Source: Paraspadella gotoi (Eukaryota > Animalia > Chaetognatha). Taken from it: a stretch of DNA of 64,000 bases. Position 1 is the first letter of the stretch. Every line of letters starts with the position of its first letter. The position numbers were made by a program, and so were the translations under genes. Under the pieces are notes generated by a model, which made no database searches, was not told the origin of the DNA, and saw only the letters and a program-made list of their open reading frames with translations. Below, in pieces: positions 17,742 through 46,800 of the stretch. The DNA is taken from contig CM119266.1 of NCBI GenBank assembly GCA_051294375.1, positions 16,362,087 to 16,426,086 on the forward strand, written 5' to 3'.

Positions 17742-18920
17742 ATGGATCCGAAACTTGCGAAAAAGCTGTCTGACTACGGGGCAACATTCGTGTTCATGGA
17801 TTTTCCCACTGGCAGTGAATTTGGCGTGGATTGTTGCATGTGGACGGTCGGTCCAAAATTCAAAGGCGTAAAGATGATTCCTCCCGGTGTGCATTTCGTA
17901 TACTTCAGCGCGGTGAGCAGTTCCGAAGGCTTGGATGTTGGGCCACGAAACGGTTTCTTTCACGATTTCAAACCAGGCGAAATGATGGTACGGTTTTGGG
18001 ACCATCAACGCGAAACATTGAGCGATCGTCGTGCTTCTCAAGAAGATCTTAGTCGAATGAAGGCAGATAAAAATGGGCTGGATCCTTTTCTAGCTCCTTA
18101 CTCTTACGATCATCACAAAAAGTGGATTTCGTTGACGAATTATGCCACGGCAGAGCTGACGCAGAGATTAAGTCCAGTATCAGGCGTCGTTTCGAGCTTT
18201 TGTGAACTAGTAGCACTTGAAAAATTCGAGCAAAAAAACACTCACCGAAAAAATAAGATGCAGACTGACGCTGAGCAGATTTCGAAATCTTCTTCCAACG
18301 AAAAAGTAGTTGAACGCCCCCAACGAAACGACGAAGACACTTTACCAAAAATGTCGGCAGAATCGCAAATGCGTTTCCACGAAATCCCTAAAAACTTAAT
18401 TCCGCCGGGGGCATCCGCCTCTGAGGTAACGCGCTTTAGCCTAGATAAGACTCTTCTGCTCGATATCTTGCTGAAAAGCGATTTCGCTGAGCGGGAGTCA
18501 GATTTATTAGGAGAGCTGCAGCTGGCCTTCGTCGTTTTTATTTACGGCCGTGTTTACGATGGATTTGAACAGTGGAAGCGCCTCGTCCACTTGCTTTGCT
18601 GCGCCGCCAGTAGCGCCACCTCCCGCCTTCAACTTTTTAACGATTTTATCACCGTCCTATATTTTCAAATACAAGAAATTCCGGATGATTTTTTCGTTGA
18701 CATTATCACTTGCAGTAACTTCTTGACGTCGACGCTCTGCTCATTTTTCCAAAATCTTCTGTCTGAGGAATGCGATTCAGATCTGAAATTGAAGGCGGAA
18801 AAATTTCGAGCGTATTTGACGAAGCGGTTTAAATGGAACTTTGATGAGGACGACGTGGAAGACGAAAGACCAGTCGTAGTGGAGTTATCAGAAAAACAAA
18901 AGAAACTAATGGATTTGTAA
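17742..18920 (+). CDS. AAR2: AAR2 splicing factor (U5 snRNP assembly factor), intronless
   Basis: MDPKLAKKLSDYGATFVFMDFPTGSEFGVDCCMWTVGPKFKGVKMIPPGVHFVYFS...LLGELQLAFVVF...FEQWKRLVHLLC...EIPDDFFVDII...KFRAYLTKRFKWNF closely matches metazoan AAR2. Confidence 0.93.
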   Translation: MDPKLAKKLSDYGATFVFMDFPTGSEFGVDCCMWTVGPKFKGVKMIPPGVHFVYFSAVSSSEGLDVGPRNGFFHDFKPGEMMVRFWDHQRETLSDRRASQEDLSRMKADKNGLDPFLAPYSYDHHKKWISLTNYATAELTQRLSPVSGVVSSFCELVALEKFEQKNTHRKNKMQTDAEQISKSSSNEKVVERPQRNDEDTLPKMSAESQMRFHEIPKNLIPPGASASEVTRFSLDKTLLLDILLKSDFAERESDLLGELQLAFVVFIYGRVYDGFEQWKRLVHLLCCAASSATSRLQLFNDFITVLYFQIQEIPDDFFVDIITCSNFLTSTLCSFFQNLLSEECDSDLKLKAEKFRAYLTKRFKWNFDEDDVEDERPVVVELSEKQKKLMDL

Positions 18921-19114
18921 AGATTTAAGCCTGAAAATGAAGATGAAATGTTTTTTACGTACTCCACCTATTTGACGCGCGTTCTGTGCTTCGGCTATAC
19001 GTATATGTACAAATAATCTTCGTATTTTTGTTGATAAATTTTCCTACATTTTTATTTCCCGCAGTTTTTAACTCCTCTCTTAACTTCCCTCCCCCCCGCC
19101 TCCCGCCCTTAACG

Positions 19115-21852
19115 ATGCTGAGCGATGATTTTGAAAAAGGCCGAAATGGTGCCACCCCCAATGGCAACTTTGTTACCCCCGGAGTGGGAGGTGTTACTTC
19201 TGGCGGTGGCGGCTATGGATGCGTCACGACTAACAACGCGGGCGACGGACCCCCATCGTTTCACCGATGTCGACGAGGCGAGGGAGCACGCACGGAGTTG
19301 CGGGTGCTCATAAACACCAAAAACGCCGGGGCAATCATTGGGAAAGGAGGCACGAATATAAAAAGACTCAGAGAATCTTACAAATCCGGCGTCACCGTTC
19401 CAGGTCGTTTGCTTTAACAGATGATAACCATAAAATAGCTCGACTTATATTGTTCTTTTACATCAAGATTGCAGCGGACCAGAACGTATATTGACGATAA
19501 CCGCAGAATTGGGAACGGCTTTGGAGGTCCTGCTTGATATCATTCCCAGACTTGACGATTACAAAGACCGCGTTGACAACGACTTCGACGCCGAAGTCCG
19601 CATTTTGGTTCACCAGTCTCAAGTCGGACCCGTAATAGGACGAGCGGGTGGAAAAATCAAAGAGCTTCGAGACGTTACGGGTACTAATATCCGTGTCTAT
19701 TCCCAATGCTGTCCGATGTCAACGGACAGAGTTATTCAAATCACAGGTATGTATTCATTCCTAAACCTAAAAGTTATTCGGGCACGAAAAGTAGGATTAT
19801 TTTTACAATCGCCGACTAGGGTTAGAGTGGCTATGTTCAAGGGTGGCGAGGTTTGGGGGGGGAAGGGTTAAGGGTAGTTTGGTAAAAACTTTTATAATTT
19901 TTTTTAATATTAACATTTTTATAATAATAAATAATAATTTTGTTTTCACCGACTAGGGTAAAGGGGTGTTTAGGGTTAAGGGTAGTTTAAGGTTAAATTA
20001 AAGTTAATGGTAATTAGGGTTAAGGAGGGTTAAGGTAATTAGGTAATATTTTTTATTATTTTTTAATAACATTTTTTGTAATATTCAAAAAAGCTATAAT
20101 CCTAATCGGCGAAAGTAAAGTTGTACTTTTTATACCCTGTTACTAGTATACTCATAAGCGAACATCCGTGTCAGTGAATGTAATATTCTACATTTTCTGT
20201 AGTCTGTATTTTGATAATTAAAACGTAAAAATAAAAATTGTCACAGGTAAACCGGATCTGGTATGCGACACGATTCAGCAAGTCATCGAGATTGCCACCT
20301 CAGCTGGTATCAAAGGCGGAATACAACCCTATGACCCTTACAACTTTGACGATTTCAATGCCCCGGATTATGGCGGATTCGGCGACCCCCAGAACCCCAG
20401 TGTACGAGGCGGTGGCGGGCACATATCTGTTCCTCGCGGATTTGGAAGCAGACACGGTGGCAGTGGTGGCGCTCCCCCACCCTTTGGAGGTAGCGGGGGT
20501 CCCGGGGGGACGCGCGCCGGATCTCGCAGTGGTAGTGGCGTTGGAAACAACGACTGGAGTGCCCATCTCGATCCGACTTTCGCTGGCCAACCAAATACCT
20601 CAAGAAGCGAAGGAGAAAGAACAACTCAACAGGTACGAGGTATCCTCATCTCTTAGTTTCGTCAATAAAAACCTATTTTCTCTTAATCAAAGATTTGCAA
20701 AACATTTGTAAAAGAATTTTAAAATAAACGAAAGTTTTCGTGGAACAACAAGGAATTTTTATTTAAAAAAAAATCGGACATGTTTCGACTCGATTTGGAG
20801 TCTTCATCAGCGTTTGAAATCATAAATATTACGTCGGAGAAAGAGAGAGAAAAAAGAAAAGGAGAGTTTCAACAAAGAATTGAGTAAAGGATAGTGGTCA
20901 CTGGTCAGATGTGAGGACAGGTAAAGATGAGGACAGGGAAGGAGAGAGAGTGAGTGAATTTGAAACTGGTGAAAAAGAGGGGGAGAGAGAGAGAGAGAGA
21001 ACAAGAGAGAAATTAATACATTTGGTAATGTACAACAATGATAAATAAGAAAAACTTAATGAACAAAGATTAATAATTTAAAACATCTAATAATTTAAAA
21101 CAAAAAACAAAAAGAAAGGCTAAACACAATGTCTAAAAATTTTTAAGTTGATATAAAAAAGACCCATTTACTGCTATGAAAAAATAAACCATTAGGTAAT
21201 TGGTAAAATCAATATAATAGTTATCCCTTCATGCAATACTAGGCTACTACTAAACTACGTATTTTTTCTCGGAATCCTAACAAATGGTTTTTAATCTGTT
21301 TTCTATAGTGGTTAAAGCATAAAAGTCGATTAAGGTCAGGGGTAAGTTTTTAGGTCAGGTTTTTCTGTTATAACATTTTTTCATCAGTTATTCTTTAATT
21401 GATTGAACGATGAAATTGTTAAGTGTTACCAGTTCGACGATAGAGAATTTGTCTTCCATTTGATTGTACGATTGTACAACTCGCTTGCAATGAAACTTAC
21501 TATGAAATTACGAAGTTTTTGACGCGCAGTATTCGTTGAGAAACTTTGTTTTTTTGTTTTATAACAACAGGTATCGATCCCAAAAGATCTAGCAGGATCA
21601 ATCATTGGAACTCAAGGTCATCGCATCCGTGCCATACGCGCTCAATCGGGAGCGCAGATTATCATCGCCAGTGAAGTACAGCCCGGAAGCAACGACAGAA
21701 TTATTACCATCACAGGAACACAAGAACAAGTAAGATGTTTTACTAGTTATTTTTAAAAAAAAAGTTTCAACCTTTTCTTTGTTTTACAGATACAAAACGC
21801 TCAGTATCTCTTACAAATGAGTGTCCGTCAGCATTCTGGAAAATACAATTAG
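19115..21852 (+). CDS. HNRNPK: Heterogeneous nuclear ribonucleoprotein K (3 KH domains + RGG region)
   Basis: Exons 19115-19403, 19468-19746, 20247-20632, 21571-21729 and 21790-21852. Motifs [84 protein letters not shown] and [14 protein letters not shown]. Confidence 0.93.
20700..21060 (-). mobile_element. Solo Penelope pseudo-LTR in an hnRNP K intron
   Basis: Shares blocks (ATAGTGGTCA...GTGAGGACAGGT...ATGAGGACA; AATACATTT...ATGTACAACAA) and the hammerhead with the pLTR at 54973-55461. Boundaries are approximate. Confidence 0.6.
20775..20812 (-). ncRNA. Minimal hammerhead ribozyme (Penelope pLTR type)
   Basis: Sense: CG CTGATGA A GACTC-CAAATC-GAGTC GAAAC AT GTC CG. Confidence 0.78.
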
Positions 21853-25648: not shown

Positions 25649-26484
25649 TTAGCTTATTACCACTTAATTATCGATTGACCTAGAATTTTGTATGTGAGTA
25701 GAAAAGTGTGTGATTGAACAGGAAACCAAGTTTCGATGGAATCTTTTGAGTGGAAATGAGTTTAAGTGGAAAAAACAAAAGTCGAATTTACTAAAATATT
25801 TATTTATTTTATTTTAACCAATAAGTACTCTAATTAATCATAATTGGATGGATAGATTGAGTTCAAATTGTTTGTGTTGGTAGAAAAATGTGTAACGATG
25901 CTTGATATAAAGTTTCGGTGGAAACGTACGAGTGGAAATGAGTTTAAATTAAAAAAATATGAGTCACATTTACTTGAATCTTTTTACTTATTTTAACCCA
26001 TAATAGATTGAGATGAAATTTTGTGAGCGGGTAGAGAGTGAGTTAGAGAGAGAGAGAGCAGAAAAATGAGCATTAAGGATCGACTCGCCAATTGCAAAGA
26101 GATGAGAGAGAAGAGAGCAGAAAAAGGAGCATAATGATCGTCGCAATTGCAAAGAGAGAGAGAGAGCAGAAAAATGAGCATAAGGATCGTTGCAATTGCA
26201 GAGAGAGAGAGAAAGAGAGAGAGTCCGAGATTAAAATTAGCAAATAAAAAAGTTATTTTACTCACTGAATAAAAATACTTAAAATACTTACAAAATACAT
26301 AAAATTGATAAAATTATTATTCCGATAACATTGTTTAATCACATGCAATATATCTAGTAAGGCGGGCCAAAATTGAACATTTTTTATAACTTCTAGTTCT
26401 CTTTAAAAATTTTTTTTTCCTTTACTACTAAATCAATTTTCAATGTAACTTTTTGAATTAGTTCAATCCCCGGGTATCCCGGTT

Positions 26485-26562
26485 CTGGCTTAATGTGACG
26501 GTGCCGTATAAACATGCCAGTGACAGGAGAGAGTCACTGAGGGTCCGCAGCCCCTACGCCAG
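26485..26562 (+). ncRNA. P5-type twister ribozyme, family A (predicted cleavage 26509/26510)
   Basis: CTGGC TTA ATGT GA CGGT GCCGT A T^AA ACAT GCC AGTGAC-loop-GTCACT G AGG GTCCGCAGCC CCT AC GCCAG. P5, P2, P3, P4 and both pseudoknots (CCG/CGG; GC/GC) are present. Confidence 0.8.
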
Positions 26563-26617
26563 TTGGTGAGATACCCCCGCGCCCGGGTATCACAGGCTAT
26601 CCTCCCGTTGCCATAAG

Positions 26618-26650
26618 TGGTGAGCCCTACTATCGAACACGCAACCTTCT
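26618..26650 (+). promoter_or_regulatory. Extended primer-binding site complementary to the 3' half of a tRNA-Trp-like tRNA
   Basis: The reverse complement is AGAAGGTTGCGTGTTCGATAGTAGGGCTCACCA, versus eukaryotic tRNA-Trp ...AGAAGGTTGCGTGTTCRAATCACGTCGGGGTCACCA (recalled). It starts 2 nt after the LTR end. Also present at 27559-27587 (-) and 39984-40016 (-). Confidence 0.75.
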
Positions 26651-26899
26651 CAGGGTACGCTACGACAAACGCCTATGCCCTGCCACTTCGGGTACGCTCG
26701 ACAAACGCCTATGCCCCTGGGTACGCTATGACAAACGCCTATGCCCCACGACTCGCGCTCTCTCTCTCTCTCTCCCACTATGGTAACAGTCTTGTCAGAC
26801 ACCTCTCAGGCTTGAGGAACCTGAGTGATGTCTTGGCCGGGGATCCTGTGGCGGTATATTCACACCGCCTCACGTCCACCATCCTTCAGCCAAATCCAT

Positions 26900-26942
26900 T
26901 GGCTCAGAGGGAACACACCATCCCAAGTGTAGTGTTCCATCC
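26900..26942 (+). promoter_or_regulatory. Pol III-like A box / variant B box in the family-B LTR
   Basis: TGGCTCAGAGG (26900-26910) and GTTCCATCC (26934-26942) lie directly upstream of the twister. The B box is non-canonical and the spacing is short. Confidence 0.45.
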
Positions 26943-26966
26943 ACAGTCCTAACGACTTCCCTCTGC

Positions 26967-27046
26967 GTTGGCAAAGCGAGACCGTCCTAGGGTAACCGCG
27001 CCAGTACTGGAGGCGTCACTGAGGGTCGGAAGCCCCCAAAGCCAAC
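26967..27046 (+). ncRNA. P5-type twister ribozyme, family B (predicted cleavage 26993/26994)
   Basis: GTTGGC AAA GCGA GA CCGT CCTAGG G T^AA CCGC GCC AGT(G)AC-TGGAGGC-GTCACT G AGG GTCGGAAGCC CCC AAA GCCAAC. The CGG/CCG pseudoknot is compensatory relative to family A. Confidence 0.82.
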
Positions 27047-27161
27047 TGAGATGCCCCATCCCAATGGGCATCACAGGCAACCCGGCTGTTGCCATAAGCC
27101 ATAAGCCACTTATGGCAACGGGAGGATAGCCTGTGTACCCGGGCGCGGGGTATCTCACCAA

Positions 27162-27240
27162 CTGGCGTAGGGCTGCGGACCCTCAGTGACCGCCTCCTGT
27201 CACTGGCATGTTTATACCGGCACCGTCACATTTAAGCCAG
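27162..27240 (-). ncRNA. P5-type twister ribozyme, family A, in the 3' LTR of E2 (cleavage 27214/27213)
   Basis: Sense: CTGGC TTAA ATGT GA CGGT GCCGGT A T^AA ACAT GCC AGTGAC..GTCACT GAGGGTCCGCAGCCCT AC GCCAG. One C short in the P4 C-run. Confidence 0.78.
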
Positions 27241-27642
27241 AACCGGGATACCCGGGGATTGAACCCGGGACGCACGGATGGAATGATATGATTTAGCCTG
27301 CTCAGCAATTGAGACGAGGCTGAGGACGGACAGCAGTGAGGCAGCTTTAAGTCTTGCTGCCACAGGATCCCCCCACCAGACTTCTCCCACAGGGGCCTCA
27401 ATCCTGAGGAGATGTCTGAGAGAAGGTTTTGATCTCATTGCCATATGTGAGAGCGACAGGCGGCCAGCGAGCGAGCGAGTCTGGAGCGTTACCAAGAAGT
27501 AGGGCATAAGCGTGATATGCATACCCTAAGCGACGTAAGCGTGGGGCACGGTGCGCACGGTTGCGTGTTCGAGAGTAGGGCTCACCACTTATGGCAACGG
27601 GAGGATAGCCTGTGATACCCGGGGCGCGGGGTATCTCACCAA

Positions 27643-27719
27643 CTGGCGTAGGGCTGCGGAACCTCAGTGACCGCCTCTGTCACTGGCATGTTATACCGGC
27701 ACCGTCACGTTTAAGCCAG
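27643..27719 (-). ncRNA. P5-type twister ribozyme, family A, in the 5' LTR of E2 (a few lesions)
   Basis: Same motif 479 nt upstream of the previous copy, with a one-A deletion and substitutions in P2 and L4. Confidence 0.68.
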
Positions 27720-27734
27720 AACCGGGATACCCGG

Positions 27735-27787
27735 GGATTGAACCCGGGACGCACGGATGGAATGAGATGATTTAGCCTGCTCAGCAA
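27735..27787 (-). promoter_or_regulatory. Pol III-like A box and B box in the family-A LTR
   Basis: Sense TTGCTGAGCAGG (27787-27776) and GGTTCAATCC (27744-27735), the latter within a T-arm-like hairpin CCGGG-TTCAATC-CCCGG. The boxes are 31 nt apart, just upstream of the twister. Confidence 0.6.
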
Positions 27788-28503
27788 TTGAGACGAGGCT
27801 GAGGACGGACAGCAGTGAGGCAGCTTTAAGTCTTGCTGCCACAATATAATAAATTATATAAAGTTTTGACAGAATTGTGCCAGTGGAAATGAGTTTAGAT
27901 GGAAAAAACATAAGTACATTTACTTGAATCTTTAATATTAATGATTACTAATAAATGTTTTAATTAATTAATTAATTAATTAATGTGAAAAAATGATGCA
28001 AGTTAAAAGAATCTTAAAAGCATAAAGATCGTCGCAATTGCATAAAAAGAGAGAGAGAGAGAGAGTGAGAGAGAGAGAGAAGGAGAAATAAAAAAAATAG
28101 AGGATATTGTTTGTTTTGATAAAATGTAAACAAAACATATTTAATAACTGTCCTAACCCAATTTTTAGGACATCGATGATGATAAGTTGAATATAAATTT
28201 AAAAAATTAATATACATATTAAAATTAATTCATTAATTAATCGATTAATTAATTAATTAATTATCGTAGGCAGATCCGACATTGTTTGCTCAAACTTGTT
28301 TTATTACATAAATGTTTATTAATATAATGTTGTTCGTTCCTCACTTTTAGAATTTTAATTAAAGTTAAATTTAGAAATTTTACTACGCCTTAGTAAAGAT
28401 ACCTTAAAAGTTTTTATCGTTTTTAGTTTCACGAGTGAAAAACTAAAGAAGTGGATCAAAATCTGAAAAAAATGAATCAAATTTGGGATTCTGCTTCGTA
28501 ATC

Positions 28504-29038
28504 ATGAGTTCCGGAGGAGCCAGGAGGTAAGAAATAAAATCGTAATTACGTAGTTACCGTGATTAGCTACCTAATTTTCGTGTTATTACCAGTACCATGA
28601 GCGCGACCGTGAGAGCTGTAAAGAAGATATCCCGTCCCCTTCCCCCACGCGTCCCCCTCGTCTTGACACCCGCAGCAGTGGGTCGTGTTCGTCATCTTCT
28701 CGAGGCAAACCCTAACGCTTCTGCTCTCAAGGTCGGAGTGAAGACTAGAGGTTGTAACGGTCTTTCTTATACGCTCGATTTTGCCCAAGGTAACATCCGC
28801 CATTGATTTATTTTAAATATTTTTGTATTTAAGTTGCTTTTATCTAATTTTAGAAAAAGGGAAATTCGACGAAGAAGTAGAACAGGATGGCGTTCGAGTG
28901 CTGATCGATCGGAAAGCCCAGCTGTCACTTCTCGGAACTGAGATGGACTACATGGAATCGAAACTTGAGACAGGGTTTGTCTTTAACAACCCTAACATCA
29001 AGGGAACATGCGGCTGCGGCGAGAGTTTCAACATTTGA
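28504..29038 (+). CDS. ISCA1: Iron-sulfur cluster assembly 1 homolog, mitochondrial
   Basis: Exons 28504-28526, 28593-28789 and 28854-29038. LVLTPAAV...[19 protein letters not shown]...[32 protein letters not shown]...[20 protein letters not shown]. Confidence 0.95.
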
Positions 29039-29468
29039 CCTTTTCGTCGAAGTATGAAATTAGATTTATTTTATGATATTATATTATCGCTTTATCCTTC
29101 GCTAGTCAACTACATTTCGGAAAAAAAAGATAAGCTTTTTCTCTGTCGTTCAATTTTCTTGTCCAGCGCTATAATTCACGTTTCGGCCGGTCCGTCTGTT
29201 GGTTGGTCTGTCCCACTTACGTATTATATGCTAATAATTTGGGTAATACTTCATCAATTTAGACCGACGGCATGTCTGTCCGTCATATGAAATTTATACA
29301 ACCAATATAAGCTATCTTGCCTCCATCTCTCTTACAAGATAATGACATAGCAGGTCCCTTCAAGCTTTCCATCAAGCTCTCTCACAGTCTCGTTCATTCA
29401 CTCCCAGAGTACCTGGCTTCCTAATCAACTTTAGTAATACTTTATCAGTTTATAAGTTTATGTACCCT

Positions 29469-29695
29469 AATAGCAATAGCCGTGTTGCCTGTGATTCCCA
29501 TTGGGATGGGGCATCTCATTGTTGGCTTCGGGGGCTTCCGACACTCAGTGACGCATCCATTCACTTGCGCGGTTACCCTAGGACGGTCTCGCTTTGCCAA
29601 CGCCGAGGGATGTCGTTAGGACTGTGGATGGAACGAAACTCCTGGGATGGTGCGTTCCCCCTCTGGACGTGAGGCAGTGTGAATATACCGCCACA
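29469..29695 (-). mobile_element. Solo LTR of the family-B twister retrozyme-like element (E3)
   Basis: Starts at the same TGTGGCGG terminus (29695) and ends at a degenerate GCTATT. An internal deletion removes part of the A-box region. Contains a mutated twister at 29521-29601. Confidence 0.75.
29521..29601 (-). ncRNA. Degenerate family-B twister ribozyme
   Basis: GTTGGC AAA GCGA GA CCGT CCTAGG G TAA CCGC GCA ... GAGTGTCGGAAGCCCC..GCCAAC, with two core substitutions. Confidence 0.6.
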
Positions 29696-30567: not shown

Positions 30568-30809
30568 TGTTATCGGGCATTGCCTAAGTTCACCCCGCCT
30601 ATAAGCATGTGACCCGGTGGCTCATGGAATAAAGCCATCAGCTCATGACCACTAGGTACCGGGTTCAATCCCAACCCGGTATATACCCTGCGGGAAGCGT
30701 GAGGACGGCCGTAAACCACCTTTGGGGCGTGTAAAACCCACTCGCCTGGTTCCAAGCCCAGGACCCGTTCAATGGCTGCTAGAGGGGGTTAAAGAAATTG
30801 CGGATAGCA
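30568..30809 (+). mobile_element. Solo-LTR-like element 'family C' (242 bp): 5' hairpin, tRNA-like A/B boxes, twister-like motif
   Basis: Termini TGTTATC...GATAGCA. The tRNA-like segment 30611-30680 contains TGGCTCATGG and GGTTCAATCC. Homologous to the 33261-33502 copy, including sequence upstream of the tRNA head. No TSD seen. Confidence 0.55.
30690..30768 (+). ncRNA. Degenerate P5-type twister ribozyme-like motif
   Basis: GCGGG AA GCGT GA GGAC GGCC G T^AA ACC ACC ..TGGG-loop-CCCA.. G CCTG GTTCCAAGCC CAGG A CCCGT. Canonical L4 and a TCC/GGA pseudoknot; the conserved GCC reads ACC. Confidence 0.55.
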
Positions 30810-31362: not shown

Positions 31363-34300
31363 ATGTATTTGGGGCCCGGTCACAACGATCTGCCCCCCGG
31401 TTACTCCTCCCGTTATTCTCCGCCACCACTCGAACTACGGGCTCCTCCCCCGCCCGGTCCGCCTCCTTGCGCTCAAGAAGGGGCTCCCCTTGTTTATGAT
31501 TACAGCCACGGCGGGGAGGGACATCGTAACTCGCACGGTCGAATCCCTCGGCCCTCTAGTCCTCACTCGAGAGGGTCCTTCTCAGAATATTCAGACCGCC
31601 ACCAGGTTCATGATAGTTTCGATCGACGACTCGACCGGGCCGCTCTTCCTCCGCGACGGCCTAGATCCCCTGCGTACGAATACGCCCCTTCACCGTCTCG
31701 ACCACCACACGACGATTTTCCTTCTAGAGTAGCCAATATTAACGTTCAACATCGAAATCGCGGGCCTCCTCTCGCAACGCATGACGATCGTCGGGGTCAA
31801 CTTTCTCCTCGACGACGAATTCCTTCGCCTTCTGAATTGTATGGACCCCCGGAAACGCCTGGTCGCTACTATACGCCCTCCACAAAGGGCACACATTATG
31901 CTCATGTAAGACGAGGCTCTCCGTCTGCTCGAAGAGCGTCGCCTCCGAGGCATCGAGATTATCTCCCACTCCGCGACACCATTGACCATTTGGATGCTCG
32001 ACCGTCGACGCGACTACCGCCGCCTCCAAGTTACGAGCCGGACCGATCCCCTGCGCCAAGGCGGATCTCTCCGGCCCCGCCACGTGATTACTGTACGCCA
32101 AGACCGAAGGAGGGCAATTCTCTTTCAAAACACGAGTCTCCTTTGCCTCCTTACCGTAGAGTCAGCCCATCTTCCCCGTTTCAAGAGCCACCAGTTCGTA
32201 GAGCGTCCCCGCCACAGGCCTACAAGGATCCTGGCCCCCACTCTCCACCCCCTTCTCGACCGGGTCGTCGACTCACGCCGTCCCCATACCGATCACCGTC
32301 GCCGGAAAGAGAAGCCTTTGTTGGCCACGTCCTCGCCGAAGGCCGACGATCTAGGTCACGCGATCGTAATCTGACACAGTTTCGCGATGGCTACCGAGAT
32401 TCCAACGAGAGAATTCCGGAACAATTTCGGGATGACTACCGCGCTGCAGCGACGTCCAAGATGCCAACCCCACCTCGGTCCATGAAACACAGTAAGGCTC
32501 CTCGTAGTCCGAGCGGCAGCCCCTTTGAGGATACGTTGCGCAATTACCGAACCGAAAGAAAGGTCGCAGCTCCTATGCCAATGAAACGACCTCGTTCTCT
32601 CTCGCGAGAGCACAGCGTCGACAATTTCGCCGATTATCCTAAAGGAATTTGCAAGGAGTGGTTCGATACTGGAATCTGCCGCAAGCCCATTGGTGGCTGT
32701 TTTTTAGCCCACTCACTGCCGGAAAGTCCGCGTTCTAAACATAGAAGGAAAAAGCAGGTTTCGCGCGAGAGAGAGGGTGGAGTTGGATCGGCCGAAGGCG
32801 CAAGGCGGGGGGATAAAAAGACGGCCATTTACAATTATGACAATGAAGAGACTCCACGTGAGGAGGAACATGATGTCATGCACAGAGATCGACGGCGAGC
32901 TGACGTCGAAAAAAGGGAAGTCGATAAAAAGCTCTGTCGGGAGTGGGCCGTCGGAGCTTGTGATAACCCTGATAAAAAGTGCAAACGAAGGTAAGCGATC
33001 TCTCGTTCTTTTAACTAAGTTTTTCCTTTTTCCTAACACTGATTACTTTCTAGGCTTTGGAAAAAGTCAATTTATTTTTTTTTTTTTTTTTTGATTGTTT
33101 AAAAGTAAAAATAAATGAAACTTCAAAGAGAACACAGTTGGGTAATTAAACTATTTTCTTTGACCAAGCACGAACAAAAGGATTTTTCTTCCGATTACTA
33201 TAAATTACTTTGGTCCACGTTCGTAAATATTAACGGAAAATAATTTTTTCCAGAAACGGATGCAACTGCCGCAGCTGCGCCTCGCAAACGCTCTGATTTC
33301 GTTTGGGGTTGCTGCTTTTTTTCCAGTTCAGATTTTCTTCACTTTTGTTCCGATCGGACTCAGGCTTCCCTTAGGGGATGTACCGGGTTAAGATTAAACG
33401 CGGGATCTTGTGATCATAAGCTGATGGCTTTACTCGACTAGCCACTGGTTCTGAAATTGCAAGGTCTATTGGTGGGGTGAATCTGAGCAATGACCTCGTA
33501 CAATTCATTTTTCACGTTCCTTTCCATTTTTATTTCGTTTGACCTTGATCGTCCTTCCTTTCCTTCTCACTTTCCTCCATTCTCACTTTTTTGTTTTTAT
33601 TAGTTGGGACCTAAGTAGCAACTCGAAGCAACTCTATAATCTATATTATACTTCAGTGTCTATCGGGGTTTTTGCCTGTTTGTCAGTCTGTCCTATATGG
33701 GTATAATTTAATTTATATAGACGGAGTTATTTGGATTAATACTTAACTCTGATAGGGGCTGTACGATAAGACCCTTCTTGTACAATTTACATGTTTCATA
33801 ATTGAATAATCTCACGAATCAACAATTCATGAGTCGGGCCGCGAATGTTTTATTTTTTGCCTGTCACGTTTCTTTTTCTCTACAGCAGGCTTCATTTTAT
33901 AAAATGAGGTACCCCTTTTTTGTGACCAGAACACGTTCCGAGAAAACTACTGAATAAATTTTAATGAAAATTGTTATGAACGATCCCTATGTGAATACAA
34001 ATAGAACTATCGAGGCGAATTCCTATATTTGACCCCTAGGGGCCGATAGGGGAAAAAAATGTTAAATTTTTTTTCTTTTGAACAGTTGCACAGTCGTTTA
34101 CTTTTCCACAAAAACTTATTTATTACCACAAAAATATTAATTTACCAAGTTTCATCTTTATGAACATCATCGGTTCAAGTCAGAGTTGGAATAATTCGGG
34201 AAAATTGGGAGAAAAACGAACCATTCATCTTCAAACAAACGCAGCAAAAAATTTTTCAATTTTAGTTTTAAAAAAGATTTTTACATGTTTTAGACGTCGA

Positions 34301-37300: not shown

Positions 37301-40300
37301 TCATTTTTTTGGCAGTTATGAAGGTTTTGTTTGTAATGGTTATTATGGTTTTTGTAATTGTGGTTGTTGTGATCGTTCTAAAGTTCTAATTAGGTGTAAA
37401 AAAAAAAATTAAAATTTGGTAAAAATGCTTAAAATTAAATGTTAACCGGTCATATACATTTTGTACAATTAGGCTTTGTGACTGTGTGTCCCTTTGCCAT
37501 TTTCAAGTTTAAAAAATTAATTATCTTTTTCTTTTCTTTTCTTTTCTTTATACTTTCTTACAAGTTAATTCAGAACTGTTTTAAAGGTCATTTTTTGTGG
37601 TGGTGTTACCGATCTCAGCCGTTTCCAAATCCAAAGAACCATACAAATTTTAAATTAAATTCAGATTTAAATAAAAGAAAGGAGGTGAAGGAAGGCAACC
37701 GAATTAGGGGAGAAAAATTCTAAAAATAACAGGAGGAAATTTATCGTACTTGAATTCATGAATTTAGAGATTCAAAAATAAAAAATATCAATTTTCATAT
37801 CCGTTAATTTTAAAAAATTAATATTAAAATTAATTAATTAGTATTACTTATTAATTAATATTAATTATCAATATTATCAATCAATTCGAGATTATCCTTT
37901 CGTTTCAGTGTGTGAAATCAGTCAATTAGAATTATTTTTCATCGATGATTAACCGTTAACTTTTAAGCGGTTAAAAGGCCTACTTCTAATGGTTGTGGTC
38001 ATTATCGTGGTTGTTTGTCTGTTGTCTCAGTTATTTCAGTTATGGTCGTTCTGGTGGTTTTGGTGATTGTCGTTTTTAATATAATGGTTTTGATTATTAT
38101 TGTTATGATAGTTGTTGTGGTTCGTGGTTATGAGTATTGTTGTTTTGATTATAAATGTTAGTATGGTTTTAATTTGTGGTTGTTATCGTTGTTATGGCTT
38201 AATAGTAATTGTTATTTATTTGTTTGTGGATGTAGTTCTGGTTGTTGATGATTTAGTATTTATTGTTGTTGCAGCGTTTTTTATACATTTTATATGAAAC
38301 AGGATAAAATGAAAAATTTCATTTTAAAAAATATCTCGTGTTTTTCCTTTTAAAATCACTTCCACTTGCCCGATTCCGTCAAAATTTTATTTCGAATTAC
38401 TAGAAATATGGTAACAAATCCTTTTTTTTTTTTTGGCTACACCCGTAGATGGTTTCTGCTTTAGTTGTAACTTTTATTTTTACTATAAACAATGCGTATT
38501 TTCCGTATTTTTCCCCGCGTTTTTTTTTTTTTCGATCTAATTTTCTGCGAGTTGAACGATTCTTTTTTTAAACGAAATTTTCGATTATTTTCGTCGTAAT
38601 TTGGGAATTCTTAAACAAAAAAAACTCATATCACTTGATCGTTTTGATTCTATTTATGGTTATGCCTTATTGATATTAAGCTTTTTTTAATTGTTAAATC
38701 AGTAATTACTAGTTCGTTCTTTTCTTCTATGATCATTTTTATCAATCTCCTCGTCTGAGTGGGTAACATTATTTTCCAGTTTTTTAAATGGTGTAGTAAT
38801 TTTCCTATGACATTCTCGATGGTCCTTGACTTAATCCCCAAGTTACTATTTGTTTATTCCTCACGGATTCTTAAGGTGCATTAGAGGAGCATTATGTTTG
38901 AATCATTCCAGCCATAAACGCTAGGAAAAAGTTTTCGTTAAGGCAAGGGTGCTGGCAATTTATAATAATCGGATCTTTTTAACCCTTTTCCTTTGCTGTA
39001 GGTTTTCAGTCGTTGTTTTTATTACAAAATTCAATTCGTCCTCTTCATTCACTATCAATTTTGTTTTAGCTGACTTTTTCTTTCTATTCACTTTACTATA
39101 TCTCCATATTTATAATCAACTACTAAAATATTTTACTCTATCGGGCAACTGAGTCATTTTAGATAATACTTAGCCGGAATCATTAAATGATCATTGTGCT
39201 CATGTTTCATACTAAACTCATGTAGTCATGTGACAACATAGAAATGCGATCATGTAAAGAGAAAACCAATGCTACTTATTTTATGTAACGGTTGGTTATT
39301 TTAGTTAATATTAGTAATATTATAATATTGTATTATTTTTTCTCTCTTTTCGTTGCTAAGTGAATATTAGGAAATGTTTATTAATGTGCCAATACAACGA
39401 TTTTATTATTAATAGTACATGTTTCGACTCTGCTGGTTCGAGTCCTCATCAGCAGAGTCAAAACATGTACTATTAATAATAAAATCGTTGTATTGGAACA
39501 TCAATAAACATTTCCTAATATAATATATTATAATATAATAATATTATAATTATGGCACAACAGCCGGTGCTTGGCCCATGTGGGATATGCTACTGTTGGC
39601 TTTGGGGCTTCGGACCTCAGTGACGCCTCCAGTCACTGGCGCGTTACCCTAGGACGGTCTCGCTTTGCCAACGCAGAAGGAAGTCGTTAGGACTAGGATG
39701 GACACTACGCCTGGGATGGTGTGTTCCCCCTCTGAGCCAATGGATTTGGCTGACGGATGGTGGACGTGAGGCGGTGTAAATATACCGCCACAGGATCCCC
39801 GGGCCAAGACATCACTCAGGTTCCTCAAGCCTGAGAGGTGTCTGACAAGACTTACCATAGTGGGAGAGAGAGAGAGCGCGAGTTGTGGGGCATAGGCGTT
39901 TGTCGTAGCCTACCCCAGGGCATAGGCGTTTGTCGTAGCGTACCCGAAGTCGGCAGGGCATAGCGTTTGTCGAGCGTACCCTGAGAAGGTTGCGTGTTCG
40001 ATAGTAGGGCTCACCACTATGGCAACAGCCGGGTTGCCTGTGATGCCCATTGGGATGGGGCATCTCACTGTTGGTTTGGGGGGTTCCGACCCTCAGTGAC
40101 GCCTCCAGTCACTGGCGCGGTTACCCTAGAGGACGGTCTCGGTTTGCCAACGCAGAAGGAGTCTTAGACTATGGATGGAACACTACGCCTGGGATGGTGT
40201 GTTCCCCTAGGGTGTGCCAAAAATTTCAAAATCATAATAGCTCAATTTACATCCGGCACAATATGTGGGGGCATAAAGAAGTATGTTTGCCCAAATCTCA

Positions 40301-43300
40301 TCGAATTTGCTTCAACACCCTTAGCACTACCCTCGCTTAAAGGATTTTTGGCACACCTTTGACTAAAAAATTAATTGTTTAAAAAATATGACTTGTTTAT
40401 CCGTCCACTCAACTTTATTAGCTGAGGAAATCATCAAAGATTATTTCACATCAATTTGAAGTGCTCTTCTCATCCACAGCCTTCACAACTGGCTCCACAG
40501 CATGCTGGAGGATGTGGAGTTGATAACATCATTGCTTATAATTCCTAACCATTCAGGGTAGAATCTTTTACTTTGACATAGTTTCACAACTAATATGTTC
40601 CTTTATATAAATCAACAACATTTGATTTTATTTAGTGGTGTGGTTACATCCTGGAGGATACTTTCTGTACCTTTTTTTATTTTTCATAAAATTGCTATTT
40701 TAAATTACATTTTTAGATTATTTATATTACAGGCTGATGTAAGATGATAAATGGGTCAGATCTAAAAAAATTGCATGAATTAAGCCTAGGTTTCAAGAGA
40801 GCCTCTCTTGAAGGATTGGGAGCACACTCAACACCCCCTTTAATGAGTAAAGATACCTTATTTTTTTAAAATATTAAATGCTTGTTTGGTTAAAATTTTA
40901 TGACCAAAATTTATACTTCAAGTTTTGATACACCTAATACCATTAAAAACTAGAGAAGATTTTAAATACTGCATTATGCAAAATGGATTTTGGTATCTTA
41001 TTTGCTTCACTAGAGAATCGTTGGAGAACAATAACAAAAGGGGGACAAATGTACGAATGTATTTGAAAAAATCTTATTTAAATTAACCGGAAGATCTTAT
41101 AACTCCGACAATGACGACAACAACGACAACAGAGGATTTACTGAATTTTGGTGAAAGGAATCTTTGTGACTAAGGTCATGTAAATGACTGAGGTCAATTC
41201 AAGTCATCTGAGTAAAATAATTATTAAACGCATAACTTATCAAAGAATAATTTTAATTTAAGACATTTTTAGCACAATATATATATAAATATTTATAATA
41301 ACATTAAATGAATTAATATGATTAGTTCAAATAAAATTCACAAAGGAAAATAGCAACAGCAACCACAGAGACAATTAATAATTGAACATCTACAAAGTAT
41401 ACAAATTATTGGATATAGTCAAGTAAATAAGAATAAGGCAAAAAAATGGAAAAAGAGGACAACAATAGCAATAATAAAAAAAATATATAACAATACAACA
41501 ATTTGTATTAAATTATTAGAATTTAAAGTTGTTAAGTTTCAAGGGAAATAATATTGTGTGAAACTGTGAATGCTTTCTTTCTTTGAGTTGTTAATTAGTT
41601 TGAGAGAAGACATTTTGTTTTGTGTTAAAAAACAACGATTTTTAAAATAGAAACAAATAATGTACATGTTGAGACTTATTCAGCGCGAATTAAATGATTT
41701 TCAAAATTTGTTTTTAATGTGGAAAAGAGAGGGAAGGAGAGAGAGAGGGGGGGGGTTTCTAACAAAGAATTTGAAAAACGACAGTGATTGTTATTATAGT
41801 TTTGTCATGTTTGTTTCTGTTTGTTACTAAAAATTATTTATAATGTTTTTTCATGAAAGTATTGAAGATGCTGAATACAGTCCGACTTTTCGTCTTCTCC
41901 TTCCGGATCTGCTTACAGCAGATTTCGGCTCTATAATTCAGTTTGTCGGTCCGTCGGTCCGCCCCCCCAATCTTGTCGGGCATTCACTTATATCATGTCA
42001 GAACATCGAATTATGATAAATTATGAGTAGCCATTGTATTATTCCTTTCTTTTCGTTGAGTTTAGAGATTTAGAAAAAAAGTTTGAAATTTTTGTTTCAT
42101 CAATTAAATTCGTTGATGAAACAAAAATTTCAAACTTTTTTTTCTAGATAAATTATGAAAAAAAATTAATGTCCGTCCGTCTGTCTGTCCATCTGTCTGT
42201 CCGTCTGTCCATCCATCCCACCTTAGCAACAAAAAAAAACCAATTCCTCGTGATTTGATGGATGGAGTGGATTGAAATTTTGTGTGTGGGTAGGAAAGTG
42301 TGTGATTAAGCTGGAAATCAGGTTTCGATGGAATCGTCCAAGTGGAAATGAGTTAAAATGGAAAAAACGAAAAAATATATTTCACTATTTGAACGCCAAT
42401 TACTCAAGAGTGAATGTGGTGATTGACTTCAAATTTTGGGCGAAATGCTCTTCGATGCCCCCTTGCCGTATGACGGAGCAGCGAATCTCTCTCGCTCGCT
42501 CTCTCTCTCTTTGGCTGATTGACTCAGAGTCAGGATCTGGATCAACAAAAACGACAACGAAAATTTGAACGATGGATTAATTGTTTAGGGTTTCGGTTAG
42601 GGATAAGGTTAGTTTAGGTGATAGATATTAGGGATTAGGATTGGGATTAGGGTTAGGGATTAGGGTTGGGATTAGGGTTAGGGATTAGGGTAGTTTTTTC
42701 CTACGCTACTTTTGCAACAATAAAATTCTGGCTTGCTGGGTGAAAGAAAGAGAGAAAGAATTAAGCCTCCGTCAGGATCGGGATAGACAGAAACAACGAA
42801 GATAATTTGAACGATGGAGGAAGCAGTTGCGACGGTGAGAGTGACGACTAAAGGAGTGACGCATAAAACAACGATGGAAGTAGCAAAAGATCTGATTTTT
42901 GTGCGTGTGTCCGAGTCCGCTGCTTCAGGCGTACCAAATTTGGTCACAAGTTATGTGGGTAGGAAAGTGTGTGTTTGAGCAGGAAATAAAGTTTCGATGG
43001 AATCGTCCAAGTAAAAATGGAAAAAAAAATCAATCTATTTCACTATTTGATTATGCTTTTTTTATATTGAATTTAAATTAAAGCTGCATTTAATAAGTGA
43101 GTAATAAATAAATAAGTAATTAATTAATTATTAATTATTTGTAATTATTAATTAATTAATTTTGTGATCGAGATTGTTGTTTTGTGATTGAGAGGCGAGA
43201 CAAAGTGAAAAACGATTTTGACACGAATTAAAAAAAATATTATTAATTATCTAATGAATGTGGGCATTGTTTGCTCAAACTTATTTCTAATAATTGAGCT

Positions 43301-43800
43301 GGCTCTAATATTATCATTTACAATAGATTTTACATCGGAGCTCCGTGATCTCACTCCTGTTTTTGTCTTTTCTCCCCTTTTTTCTCTCTGTCTTCTTTTC
43401 ATTCTATCTGTCTGTCTTCTTTTTCTTCTTTCTGTCTGTCTTGTTTTCCTTCTTTTTGTCTATCTTGCTTTCCTTCTTTCTGTCTGTCTTGTTTTTCTTC
43501 TTTCGTTTTTTCTCTTTTTCTCTTTTTTTCATTTTATTTTTCTCTCTTTCTCGTTTTCTTTTTCTCTCTTTCTTTCTCGTTTTCTTTTTCTCTCTTTCTT
43601 TCTCGTTTTCTTTTTCTCTCTTTCTTTCTCGTTTTCTTTTTCTCTCTTTCTTTCTCGTTTTCTTTTTCTCTCTTTCTTTCTCGTTTTCTTTTTCTCTCTT
43701 TCTTTTCCGTTTTCTTTTTTTTTCTTTTTTACTCGTTTTCTTTTTCTCTCTTTTTTACTCATTTTCTTTTTCTTTCTTTTTTTCTCATTTTCTTTTTCTC

Positions 43801-43843
<43 letters not shown>

Positions 43844-46800
43844 GTCAGTCATTCTCCCTTTATAAAAGCTTATATCATTCTTTCTTACATTTACTTAGCA
43901 CTGTTAATTTAGCACTGGTTAATTAAATAAGATTTCTTCAAATACATTCGTACATTTGTCCCCCTTTTGTTATTGTTCTCCAACGATTCTCTAGTGAAGC
44001 AAATGAGATACCAAAATCCATTTTGCATAATGCAGTATTCAAAATCTTCTCTAGTTTTTGATGGTATTAAGTGTATTAAAACTTGAAGCATAATTTTTGG
44101 TCATAACATTTTAACCAAACAAGCATTTTATATTTAAAAAAATAAGGTATCTTTACTCAGTTAAAGGGGGTGTTGAGTGTGCTCCCAGATCCTTCAAGAG
44201 AGGCTCTCTTGAAACCTAGGCTTAAATCATGCAATTTTTTTAGATCTGACCAATTTTTGTATCATCTTACATCAGCCTGTAATGTAAATTATCCAAAAAT
44301 GTAATTTAAAATAGCAATTTTAGGAAAAATAAAAAAAATAACAGAAAGTATCCTCCAGGATGTGACCACACCACTAAATAAAATCAAATGTTGTTGAGTT
44401 ATATAAAGGAACATATTAGTTGTAAAACTATGTCAAAGTAAAAGATTCTACCCTGAATGGTTAGGAATTATAAGCAATGATGTTATCAACTCCACATCCT
44501 CCAGCATGCTGAGGAGACAGTTGTGAAGGCTGTGGATGAGAAGAGCACTTCAAATTGATGTGAAATAATCTTTGATGATTGCCTCAGCTAATAAAGTTGA
44601 GTGGACGGATAAACAAGTTATATTTTTCAAACAATTAATTTTTTAGTCAAAGGTGTGCCAAAAATCCTTTAAGCGAGGGTAGTGCTAAGGGTGTTGAAGC
44701 AAATTCGATGACATTTGGGCAAACATACTTTTTTATACCCCCACATATTGTGCTGGATGTAAATTGAGCTACTATGATTTTGAAATTTTTGGCACACCCT
44801 AGTGTTCCCCCTCTGAGCCAATGGATTTGGCTGACGGATGGTGGACGTGAGGCGGTGTGAATATACCGCCACATAATATTATATATTATATTATGATATT
44901 AATTTTAGTTAATATTTTAGTTTTAAAAAAATTAATACTTTACAGATAAGTGATGAATCATAAGATGCTTGTGCATGTTTCATACATGTGTAGTGTGTAT
45001 TCAGTCATTATCGAAAATGCGTCCACCAAGTCACCGCAACACCTCACACCGTCAGTCACCTTGAATATGCCAGTTCGTCGTTTTTATTTCTTCCTTATCA
45101 GTCAAAATATTTTCAAATTAATGCATTTTTTTTCCTATTGTTGCATGTTTTATTCAGCCAAAAAAATCCTTTTTCTCGAAGGAATTTTTAATATTTCCTG
45201 GTTCGTTTTTTCGTTGTTAGCCTAAGGCTTTGTCAGGTTTTACAATCGAGTTTCTTTCTGAGTCTGGTTTATAGGCAAGCTGTCTCCTTTATTAATATAC
45301 CTATACGTTTTCGGTGTAACTAAAATTACGATTCTCATTAAGAAGCAGTTTATTTGGAAAAGTAATATTTACTAATGTCGGCTTATTTTCCGAGAATATA
45401 AATTCTCTGTAGTTGATGGGGTTTTCTGCTCGTATTTTTCTATTTCTCTAGAGAAAATTATTTCAAGTTGTTTAAATGAATGTTTACATACGTCGTTACT
45501 TTCCGATATCAATCATTAAATCTTTTATCGACTTTAAAATTTCGTAAACGCCATACTACTACTTCATGAGGTCGACGACCACTCGCTATTTAATTTTCGT
45601 TGGAATGATTAAAAATAGAAAAGATTACTGTCAATCTTCGAATTACGAATGTAAACGTAACCGAACAAAAATACTGATTATGAAAGCTCCTTTCGTTAAT
45701 ATTTTTTCGCTTTTTTTGACCGATCAGGCATTTCTTTATCAACGATGAAGCCGATTACTACAATGACATCAACGCCAGTCAGACATTGCCATCGGAGATT
45801 GTGCAAAAAGAACATGAAGGCGAACTGGATTATGATTGGCAGAATTGGTTACATGAGCAAACAAATAACTGGATTTTCCAGAAGCGCCTCAATGAAAAGC
45901 GCGCTGAAGAAGATGCGCGGATGGGTCAAACAAACGCCGCGGCGGCAATCATGCGCCGACAGATGGAAGAGTACCAGGAACAGATGCAAACCTGGATGGT
46001 GGATATGAATGAGTGGATGAAAACTCAACGGCTATCACCAGAAAAATTGAGAGAAATGAAAGATATGATAAAGCAGCAGATGGAACAAGTAAAACAAGTG
46101 GCTCAGTCAGCTGATTTCATGGCTTCCCATGGACCTGGCGTCCTTCCAATTGAGAAACCTCCGAGAACTACCTCAAATATCAGCAGTGAATATTCTGTTC
46201 AACAATATGCAGCATCTGCATCATCCACCGGTCAAGCTGGGCCTCTCAAACAAAGACCTTTATCTGTCACAGCTTCTGTTGCTCCCGAAGTTCCTCCAGG
46301 ACCTCTTCCATCGGGCTCTCCCAGAGGATTTCCTGCGGGAGTAATGCCTCCATTTGATCCCAAACGTCCGCCTCCGAGCTACCATGCAGGTCACACACCA
46401 CCTATCCACGTACTGCCTCCAGGTTTTCAAACCAATACTCCCCCACCGGGTTATGCTGCCCCCTTAAGCTCTATCAACTCTCCCGCTCCTTCACAAGGCG
46501 TAAACATGCACAGAAGACCGTCTGCAAGATCTGTGGAAGCTCCAGTAGATGGGGTTGGAATCCCACAAAAGTACAAACCTTGCTTTAATTTTCGACGAGG
46601 CAAATGCCATTTGACCGAGGAAGAGTGTCCTTACAGCCACAGCATTGAAAGACGGGATAAACCTTGTATTGCTTTCAATCAAGCAAGTTGCCGGTTTGAC
46701 GCTGATTGCTGTACTTACCAGCATGTTTGTAAGTTATGTGGCGGACCGGAACCACTCCGCAGCTGTGGGTGCCAGGATAGACGCTCGCCCGATAGATTAT

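Follow-up and report, generated by a model that had tools for sequence, protein, structure and literature searches.

Which polymerase reads an element that carries tRNA-like promoter motifs and a predicted self-cleaving ribozyme in the same repeat, and what becomes of the RNA? The question is raised by a set of short repeated elements in the chaetognath Paraspadella gotoi, which lie in a stretch of 64,000 nucleotides that was analysed whole and is called the window here. A review of retrozymes leaves the polymerase for retrozyme RNA open (PMC7761336). Retrozymes with LTRs have been described mainly from plants and with hammerhead ribozymes, and those of animals as non-LTR (PMC4918200; 10.64898/2026.07.22.740005). 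The original prediction for this locus was that a tRNA-derived Pol III promoter sits inside the LTR, ahead of a twister ribozyme, and that the RNA is free of U-runs. The account toward which we lean, if only just, is that the family A element is a TRIM with tRNA-type boxes and a twister, likely transcribed by Pol III, whose transcript would cut itself down to a 479-nt monomer and would be copied as a circle by way of a helper.

The anatomy is the firmest part of the answer. From the order of its parts the family A element (27843-27111, minus strand) is almost certainly a TRIM, a non-coding LTR mini-retrotransposon. Its 733 bp run from a 254-nt LTR over 2 nt to a PBS, an internal region, a purine tract and the second LTR (Table 1); it thus stays under 1 kb with two LTRs and no coding capacity, as TRIMs do, the longest ATG-started frame in the monomer having 96 codons. 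The two LTRs are 97% identical over 261 nt. Homologous LTRs with the same ends are found in family B, which also shares the first 26 nt of the internal region. These ends read TG..TA, against the TG..CA of the TRIM criterion; several published Helenus LTRs likewise end in TA (PMC10886601). The polypurine tract (PPT) is a G-rich run ending in GGGGATCC in families A and B, interrupted and short in the latter. The sole complete free-standing copy, which belongs to family B, has the 4-bp ATTA on either side, in an AT-rich flank where this may be due to chance; no target duplication was seen at the family A composite or at the solo LTR.

Table 1. Features of the element families in the window, with strand and basis or remarks.
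Feature	Position	Strand	Remarks
5' LTR, family A	27590..27843	-	starts TGTGG, ends CCATA
A-box-like motif TTGCTGAGCAGG	27776..27787	-	T at position 2 non-canonical in the 5' LTR copy
B-box GGTTCAATCCC	27734..27744	-	full consensus match, within a perfect T-arm-like hairpin
Type-P5 twister fold, 5' LTR of family A	27643..27719	-	predicted cut 27693/27692; from alignment and pair counts
Two-part tRNA-Trp PBS	27559..27587	-	by-eye comparison with published tRNA fragments
Internal region, family A	27365..27589	-	non-coding
Polypurine-tract-like run	27368..27377	-	from sequence; directly upstream of 3' LTR
3' LTR, family A	27111..27364	-	A-box 27308-27297, B-box 27265-27255, twister 27240-27162, predicted cut 27214/27213
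Predicted cut-to-cut monomer, family A	27214..27692	-	479 nt, free of TTT; the 3' LTR supplies its U3 and promoter motifs
Chimeric element, tail-to-tail with family A	26461..27096	+	truncated A LTR, B internal region, B LTR
Truncated A LTR of chimera	26461-26615	+	begins at B-box
B LTR of chimera	26847-27096	+	A-box 26900, weak B-box 26933, twister 26968-27045, predicted cut 26993/26994
Complete family B element	39551..44873	-	ATTA on both flanks; 5' LTR split by an insertion
Solo family B LTR	29470..29695	-	A-box region deleted, by alignment
Family C	30618..30761	+	A-box, perfect B-box (30662), twister
Family D	33359..33451	-	related to C but decayed, with broken B-box and twister

The PBS begins 1-2 nt past the end of the LTR and names its primer. 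Site 1 of family A agrees at 11 of 13 nt with the Trp PBS in Fig S2 of PMC10886601. Site 2 is an exact complement of the variable loop and 5' T-arm of tRNA-Trp, over 14 nt in family A and 18 nt in family B, the reference being nematode and wheat tRNA-Trp fragments (PMC6903752 and PMC8722339) that may differ from the tRNA of the host. Such a two-part site makes it very likely that reverse transcription of families A and B is primed by the tRNA and carried out by a helper LTR element, and it makes a SINE or Penelope route unlikely; within the 64-kb window no helper was seen. In both families, and with different letters, long-range pairings are also predicted, the 3' part of the LTR with the PPT and LTR start, and the LTR end and PBS with an internal segment (27365-27615 in A, 26825-27097 in B).

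TTGCTGAGCAGG and GGTTCAATCCC recur in the second LTR of family A at 27308 and 27265. Measured against the consensus (A-box TRGYNNARNNG, B-box GGTTCRANYCY, usual gap 30-60 nt; PMC12498455), the B-box of family A is perfect, the A-box is off at position 2 only and the gap is 32 nt. In sequencing run X1 the canonical G at this position of the A-box accounts for 9145 of 9403 units of depth in 18 contigs (97%), and at 27786 itself for 5597.8 of 5681.2; the 5' LTR copy therefore departs from a family whose A-box is proper, and the single contig of run X2 carries the canonical base as well. Family C has a perfect B-box at canonical spacing and an A-box with two mismatches. In family B it is the A-box that is perfect, while the B-box candidate TGTTCCATCCA has 3 mismatches in 11 and stands only 22 nt away (24 nt with a common 2-nt insertion), and the B-box of family D has decayed. 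A tRNA-like head with both boxes is thus present in the LTR of family A and in family C, and in family B by its A-box only. Of the boxes that had been predicted upstream of the twister in all four families, the pair holds for A and C, is doubtful for B and has decayed in D.

Counts against shuffles bear the motifs out for families A and C. The pattern GGTTCRANNCC occurs four times in the window against 0.68 expected, a number reached in none of 100 shuffles; the four sites are the two A LTRs, which are one repeat, family C and an unrelated site at 39435. A composite of both boxes, composed after the matches were known, finds the two A LTRs and family C and has no match in 100 local shuffles. 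With the pattern relaxed to admit the B-box of family B, there are four matches, and the shuffle maximum is also four. Families A and C are colinear over the boxes and the start of the twister, yet the stretch that they share by BLAST is only 17 nt, and the predicted cut lies 94, 93 and 94 nt from the A-box in families A, B and C. ARAGORN called no tRNA gene, so the boxes have been kept without a cloverleaf. The promoter-plus-twister anatomy is in this way partly supported, well for families A and C and poorly for B, and it is on these motifs that we consider the family A element to be probably transcribed by Pol III.

The ribozyme is assigned to type P5 by its fold, in part on the finer twister consensus. 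The fold starts about 15 nt past the B-box, and its parts follow in the order P2', GA with the T1 strand, a tiny P1, the U-A site, P2, the T2 strand, P3, P4 and L4, closed by P5. The features of the type in the list of PMC8501958 are present, namely P1, P2, P4, an L1 with the U-A site, the pseudoknots T1 and T2 and an open P5. A descriptor of the fold matched three of the seven A and B copies and no other site in the window. When the seven copies are aligned, 90% of 143 cells are paired, compared with 29-43% in slid controls. At four of 21 pairs both partners have changed (two of these pairs lie in P2, one in the T1 pseudoknot and one in P1), a number that does not exceed shuffles (177 of 500) and that reflects a single split, family A against family B. 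Rfam gave no match in the window at gathering score and did not call the A and B twisters, which have a long P3 stem that its P5 model lacks; family C reaches 19.7 bits in Twister-P5 (E=1.5, cut-off 37.6), and E-value scans of the window brought up this weak family C twister and chance hairpins only. A covariance model built from the seven copies retrieved those seven and missed family C, and so gives no independent support. The twister in the 5' LTR of family A has lesions in P4, which may be mutations or assembly errors; it was missed by the strict descriptor and scored lowest among the copies used for training. On this structural model, we would expect the twister to be active in good copies with high confidence. 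The idea that the B-box, by its resemblance, is itself the L4 loop was rejected, the twister core lying 15-100 nt downstream. A scan of metagenomes with the PBS pattern gave no match, and two matches to a twister-core pattern were discarded as chance matches of 21-25 nt in bacterial-looking DNA.

The original prediction had further held that the ribozyme-sense strand has no TTT in 26510-26993 or 27111-27589, while the antisense strand does contain TTTT. A count confirms the first; as to the second, TTTT occurs once on the antisense strand of the A unit (27427) and nowhere in 26510-26993. The absence of TTT from the two stretches has P=0.015 and 0.005 under base shuffling, and P=0.17 and 0.10-0.11 under dinucleotide shuffling. 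When the two stretches are taken together, as 930 non-redundant nt, TTT occurs 0 times against 7.7 expected (P 1.4e-4) and AAA 10 times against 6.3, an asymmetry with P 2e-4, and TTTT occurs 0 times against 1.66 expected (P 0.17). Among 32 composition-matched, half-overlapping windows, none lacks TTT and seven lack TTTT. The strand-specific depletion that had been anticipated therefore exists for TTT, is weaker under dinucleotide shuffling and is not significant for TTTT. TTT is found once each in the second B unit, the solo B LTR and family C and twice in family D, and TTTT in none of these; among the 19 substitutions and 12 indels displayed from the runs, inspection by eye reveals none that creates a sense TTT. 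T4 runs are found at 12-16 per kb in the window, one of them 65 nt past the complete B element. TTTT is the minimal Pol III terminator (PMC5725217), and termination is also possible at short U-tracts near hairpins (10.1101/2020.09.11.294140). It is worth stressing that the lack of TTT is real, strand-specific and compatible with Pol III; as an argument for Pol III it is only suggestive, since TTTT is not significantly depleted and a structured RNA with A-rich loops could show an imbalance of TTT and AAA of this kind as well.

Two of the four listed sequencing runs, X1 and X2, include part of the stretch, and X3 and X4 have no coverage of the element. The runs are available as contigs whose RNA nature is presumed and whose depth does not serve to rank expression. 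X1 is RNA-like, with spliced, intron-less and mismatch-free contigs of a neighbouring gene. It has 589 contigs on one copy each of four parts of the element, among them contigs that span the LTR-PBS-internal and the internal-PPT-LTR junctions. Family B is the better covered, and no majority change appears at its weak B-box. Some contigs, of 2.0 and 3.7 kb, include a B LTR with flanks, so that read-through transcripts or DNA contribute. The contigs carry no information on ends, strand or circularity, and a circle would look in them just like LTR-internal-LTR DNA.

How, then, might the element work? Pol III would start about 10 nt upstream of the A-box (near 27797), and the first twister would cut off a leader of about 105 nt. 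The polymerase would cross the T-free element and halt at a T-run in the AT-rich flank, and the second twister would trim the 3' end. An RtcB-type ligase could then join the 5'-OH and cyclic-phosphate ends into a circle, as it does for animal retrozymes in vitro (PMC7229834). Primed by tRNA-Trp, a Gypsy-type reverse transcriptase would go round the circle and rebuild both LTRs together with the promoter. That the promoter is retained in the excised monomer through the 3' LTR was part of the original prediction, and its motifs do lie in the cut-to-cut unit. Lacking a terminal repeat, the monomer could not be copied by ordinary strand transfer unless it is circularised; for plant retrozymes, circles were argued from the same absence after double cutting (PMC4918200). 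We thus regard a circle as the reasonably likely template for copying. In the fold model, which leaves out pseudoknots, the circular monomer of family A is moderately well folded (z=-2.65, 40 shuffles), with its twister disrupted; the circles of family B are unremarkable, with z about -1.3.

A rival that keeps Pol III and the twister does without the circle. One of the two twisters would often stay uncut, so that the tRNA-like head or else the part of the LTR past the cut would be left as a terminal repeat for ordinary strand transfer, and the twister would mainly substitute for the T-run found downstream of the B-box in the majority of Helenus LTRs. The twister does occupy the place of a T4 or longer run: by eye, such a run follows the B-box in about 39 of 56 animal Helenus LTRs (supplement parts 6-7 of PMC10886601), and the fish families of part 5 are without it. 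Cassandra relies on a linear Pol III RNA that carries a short terminal repeat (PMC10886601). The folding model cuts both ways here: attaching U3, as in the 3' LTR, lowers the predicted pairing of the family A P3 from 0.87 to 0.40 (pseudoknots being outside the model), but in the circle P3 is silenced wholly, as is expected of a stable circle. The ribozyme is, besides, the same in the two LTR copies, and plant LTR retrozymes are cleaved doubly (PMC4918200). We consider a linear template rather unlikely.

The second rival questions the polymerase itself. The boxes would be the relic head of a captured SINE, the RNA would be made by Pol II from an LTR promoter or by read-through from the host, the twisters would excise the monomer from it, and the lack of TTT would follow from a GC-rich, structured RNA. 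The weak B-box of family B, the loss of the A-box from the solo B LTR, the long X1 contigs with flanks and the non-significant depletion of TTTT would all fit, as would the T4 runs in the internal regions of two wasp Helenus-2 elements, which also call for caution against over-reading the U-run argument; Helenus promoters are, according to Kojima, unvalidated (PMC10886601). Against it stand the perfect B-boxes of families A and C, at exact spacing amid sequence that has diverged between and around them, the canonical A-box in most of the X1 depth, and the matched windows, none of which lacks TTT. Like the linear template, though a shade more so, this reading is unlikely.

Very improbable, finally, is a non-LTR origin as a SINE-like or Penelope-mobilised tandem repeat with a tRNA head and a ribozyme, as in Schistosoma Sm-alpha, whose "LTRs" would be a partial tandem duplication: it could appeal to the Pol III head and ribozyme described for Schistosoma repeats (PMC6765202), the link of animal retrozymes to Penelope-like elements (10.64898/2026.07.22.740005), the Penelope-like frame in the window, the inverted junction at 27096-27111 and the lack of demonstrated LTR ends in family C, but it is opposed by the sharp ends common to A and B, the tRNA-Trp PBS right after the LTR and the purine tract ahead of the 3' LTR, a solo LTR and a candidate 4-bp duplication, the absence of PBS and PPT from metazoan non-LTR retrozymes (PMC4918200) and the lack of any similarity between the element and the Penelope-like copy of the window.

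The preferred reading, a Pol III-transcribed TRIM that is copied from a circle, has its relatives on several sides. The original prediction had drawn its comparison with Cassandra, which is like the gotoi element in having a Pol III promoter in its LTR, established there and predicted here; Cassandra differs in its 5S-derived promoter, its plant hosts, its linear RNA with a short terminal repeat and its want of a ribozyme (PMC10886601), and no segment of the window matched the Rfam 5S model, the boxes being of tRNA type. Closer is Helenus, of the tRNA-derived TRIMp3 group, in which a tRNA promoter within the LTR of a TRIM has already been published (Kojima 2024, PMC10886601). Both are short, non-coding LTR elements with A- and B-boxes in the LTR, a PBS and PPT and a non-functional tRNA, and the 4-bp duplication of animal Helenus has a candidate counterpart in the ATTA of the complete B copy. 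The gotoi element differs in combining a twister after the B-box, no T-run, a more degenerate head and a second tRNA-complementary site in the PBS, whereas most Helenus LTRs end soon past the B-box, often with a T-run; Helenus is defined by its layout and probably has multiple origins (PMC10886601). The PBS string of families A and B is absent from the Helenus supplement in the parts available, and six twister-loop strings occur there 10 times, with no twister among the four occurrences viewed by eye.

Two gall-wasp elements in the same data (PMC10886601 Data S1), Helenus-2_SyJa and Helenus-2_SyUm, have the same layout: a putative ribozyme past the tRNA-like head, a B-box that no T-run follows, and a tRNA-Trp PBS. 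In their LTRs a type III hammerhead can be made out by eye, complete and with loops I and II complementary to each other, and they are unlike the gotoi element in this ribozyme and in the T4 runs of their internal regions. The word ribozyme is found in the main text of PMC10886601 in the title of a reference only, with no remark there on these hammerheads.

On the other side stand the LTR retrozymes of plants (PMC4918200), with one ribozyme per LTR, a PBS and PPT, a monomer without terminal repeat and a predicted circle, all as here, and with a 4-bp duplication, for which there is a candidate here, but with a type III hammerhead and a tRNA-Met primer. Promoter activity of a retrozyme LTR was shown in N. 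benthamiana, in a report whose available text does not mention Pol III (PMC9695139). With a twister fold in place of the hammerhead, the family A element would work like a retrozyme, on our model, and yet stand outside the strict plant definition. Schistosoma repeats and the Perere-3 twisters (PMC6765202, PMC8501958) are similar in joining a Pol III head to a ribozyme and in placing a twister in an animal retroelement, but they are non-LTR and have no PBS or PPT; the Perere-3 twisters are truncated 5'-end variants of an autonomous LINE (PMC8501958).

By analogy, the closest working analogue of the family A element is the synthetic Tornado system (10.1101/2020.09.11.294140), in which a Pol III transcript with two twisters is ligated by RtcB into a stable circle, as is predicted here; Tornado differs in being engineered and immobile, with an external U6 promoter and two different twisters. 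Tentatively, and with somewhat less confidence than in the circle, one may see the gotoi element as a natural Tornado, an animal LTR retrozyme of an unrecognised class of ribozyme-bearing TRIMp3 elements that arose more than once, with a twister here and a hammerhead in the wasp Helenus-2 elements, the ribozyme taking the place of the Pol III terminator. If so, each copy would be a self-contained factory of circular RNA with an internal Pol III promoter and two twisters, which would solve the problem of how a Pol III element with LTRs reads through its own first LTR while its ends remain defined. Mainly in the open literature, Repbase being outside the search, we found no report of a twister in a TRIM LTR, a ribozyme in TRIMp3 or an animal LTR retrozyme of like layout.

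Taken as it stands, the element appears to be a real feature that joins Helenus to the LTR retrozymes, with promoter, cleavage and circle as predictions: a 480-nt unit combines a candidate promoter, a candidate ribozyme and a named primer tRNA. If this is right, LTR retrozymes extend to animals and to twisters, two groups of TRIMs described separately are joined, and a compact natural cassette for the expression of circular RNA is at hand. Ribozyme scans of TRIM libraries would then be predicted to yield more such elements, in the wasp families first.

The other copies in the window have stories of their own. In the chimera (26461-27096) an A-type LTR passes into a B-type body, the switch falling within the shared region of LTR end and PBS, which suggests template switching between families. 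At 27096-27111 it meets the family A element tail to tail. A few PBS-like bases remain there, which looks like the ligation of two cDNA ends that had escaped processing. The internal region of family B contains a hairpin unit of 28-30 nt in three copies (26653-26746 and 39888-39945). Family D is 78% identical to family C over 93 nt. The insertion in the 5' LTR of the complete B element (40207-44802) is 4.6 kb long; it carries long inverted repeats at its termini, comes with a 9-bp duplication, and is taken to be Mutator-like.

An AAR2 gene and a KH-domain gene at 17742-19871 mark the host as an animal; the best named matches of AAR2, at 38-46%, are spread over molluscs, a brachiopod, an annelid and fish, and unnamed matches reach 60%. 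Around the elements, a palindrome at 39392-39493 has hammerhead-like core boxes and contains the B-box match at 39435; a standard hammerhead was rejected there, its stems not fitting by eye. Between inverted repeats at 55161-57234 lie truncated RT/GIY-YIG reading frames that had no match in Pfam and that we presume to be Penelope-like. The host gene at 28425-29341 has two short GT-AG introns, spliced in run X1, and is presumably IscA-like; a 64-aa piece of it had no match in Pfam.
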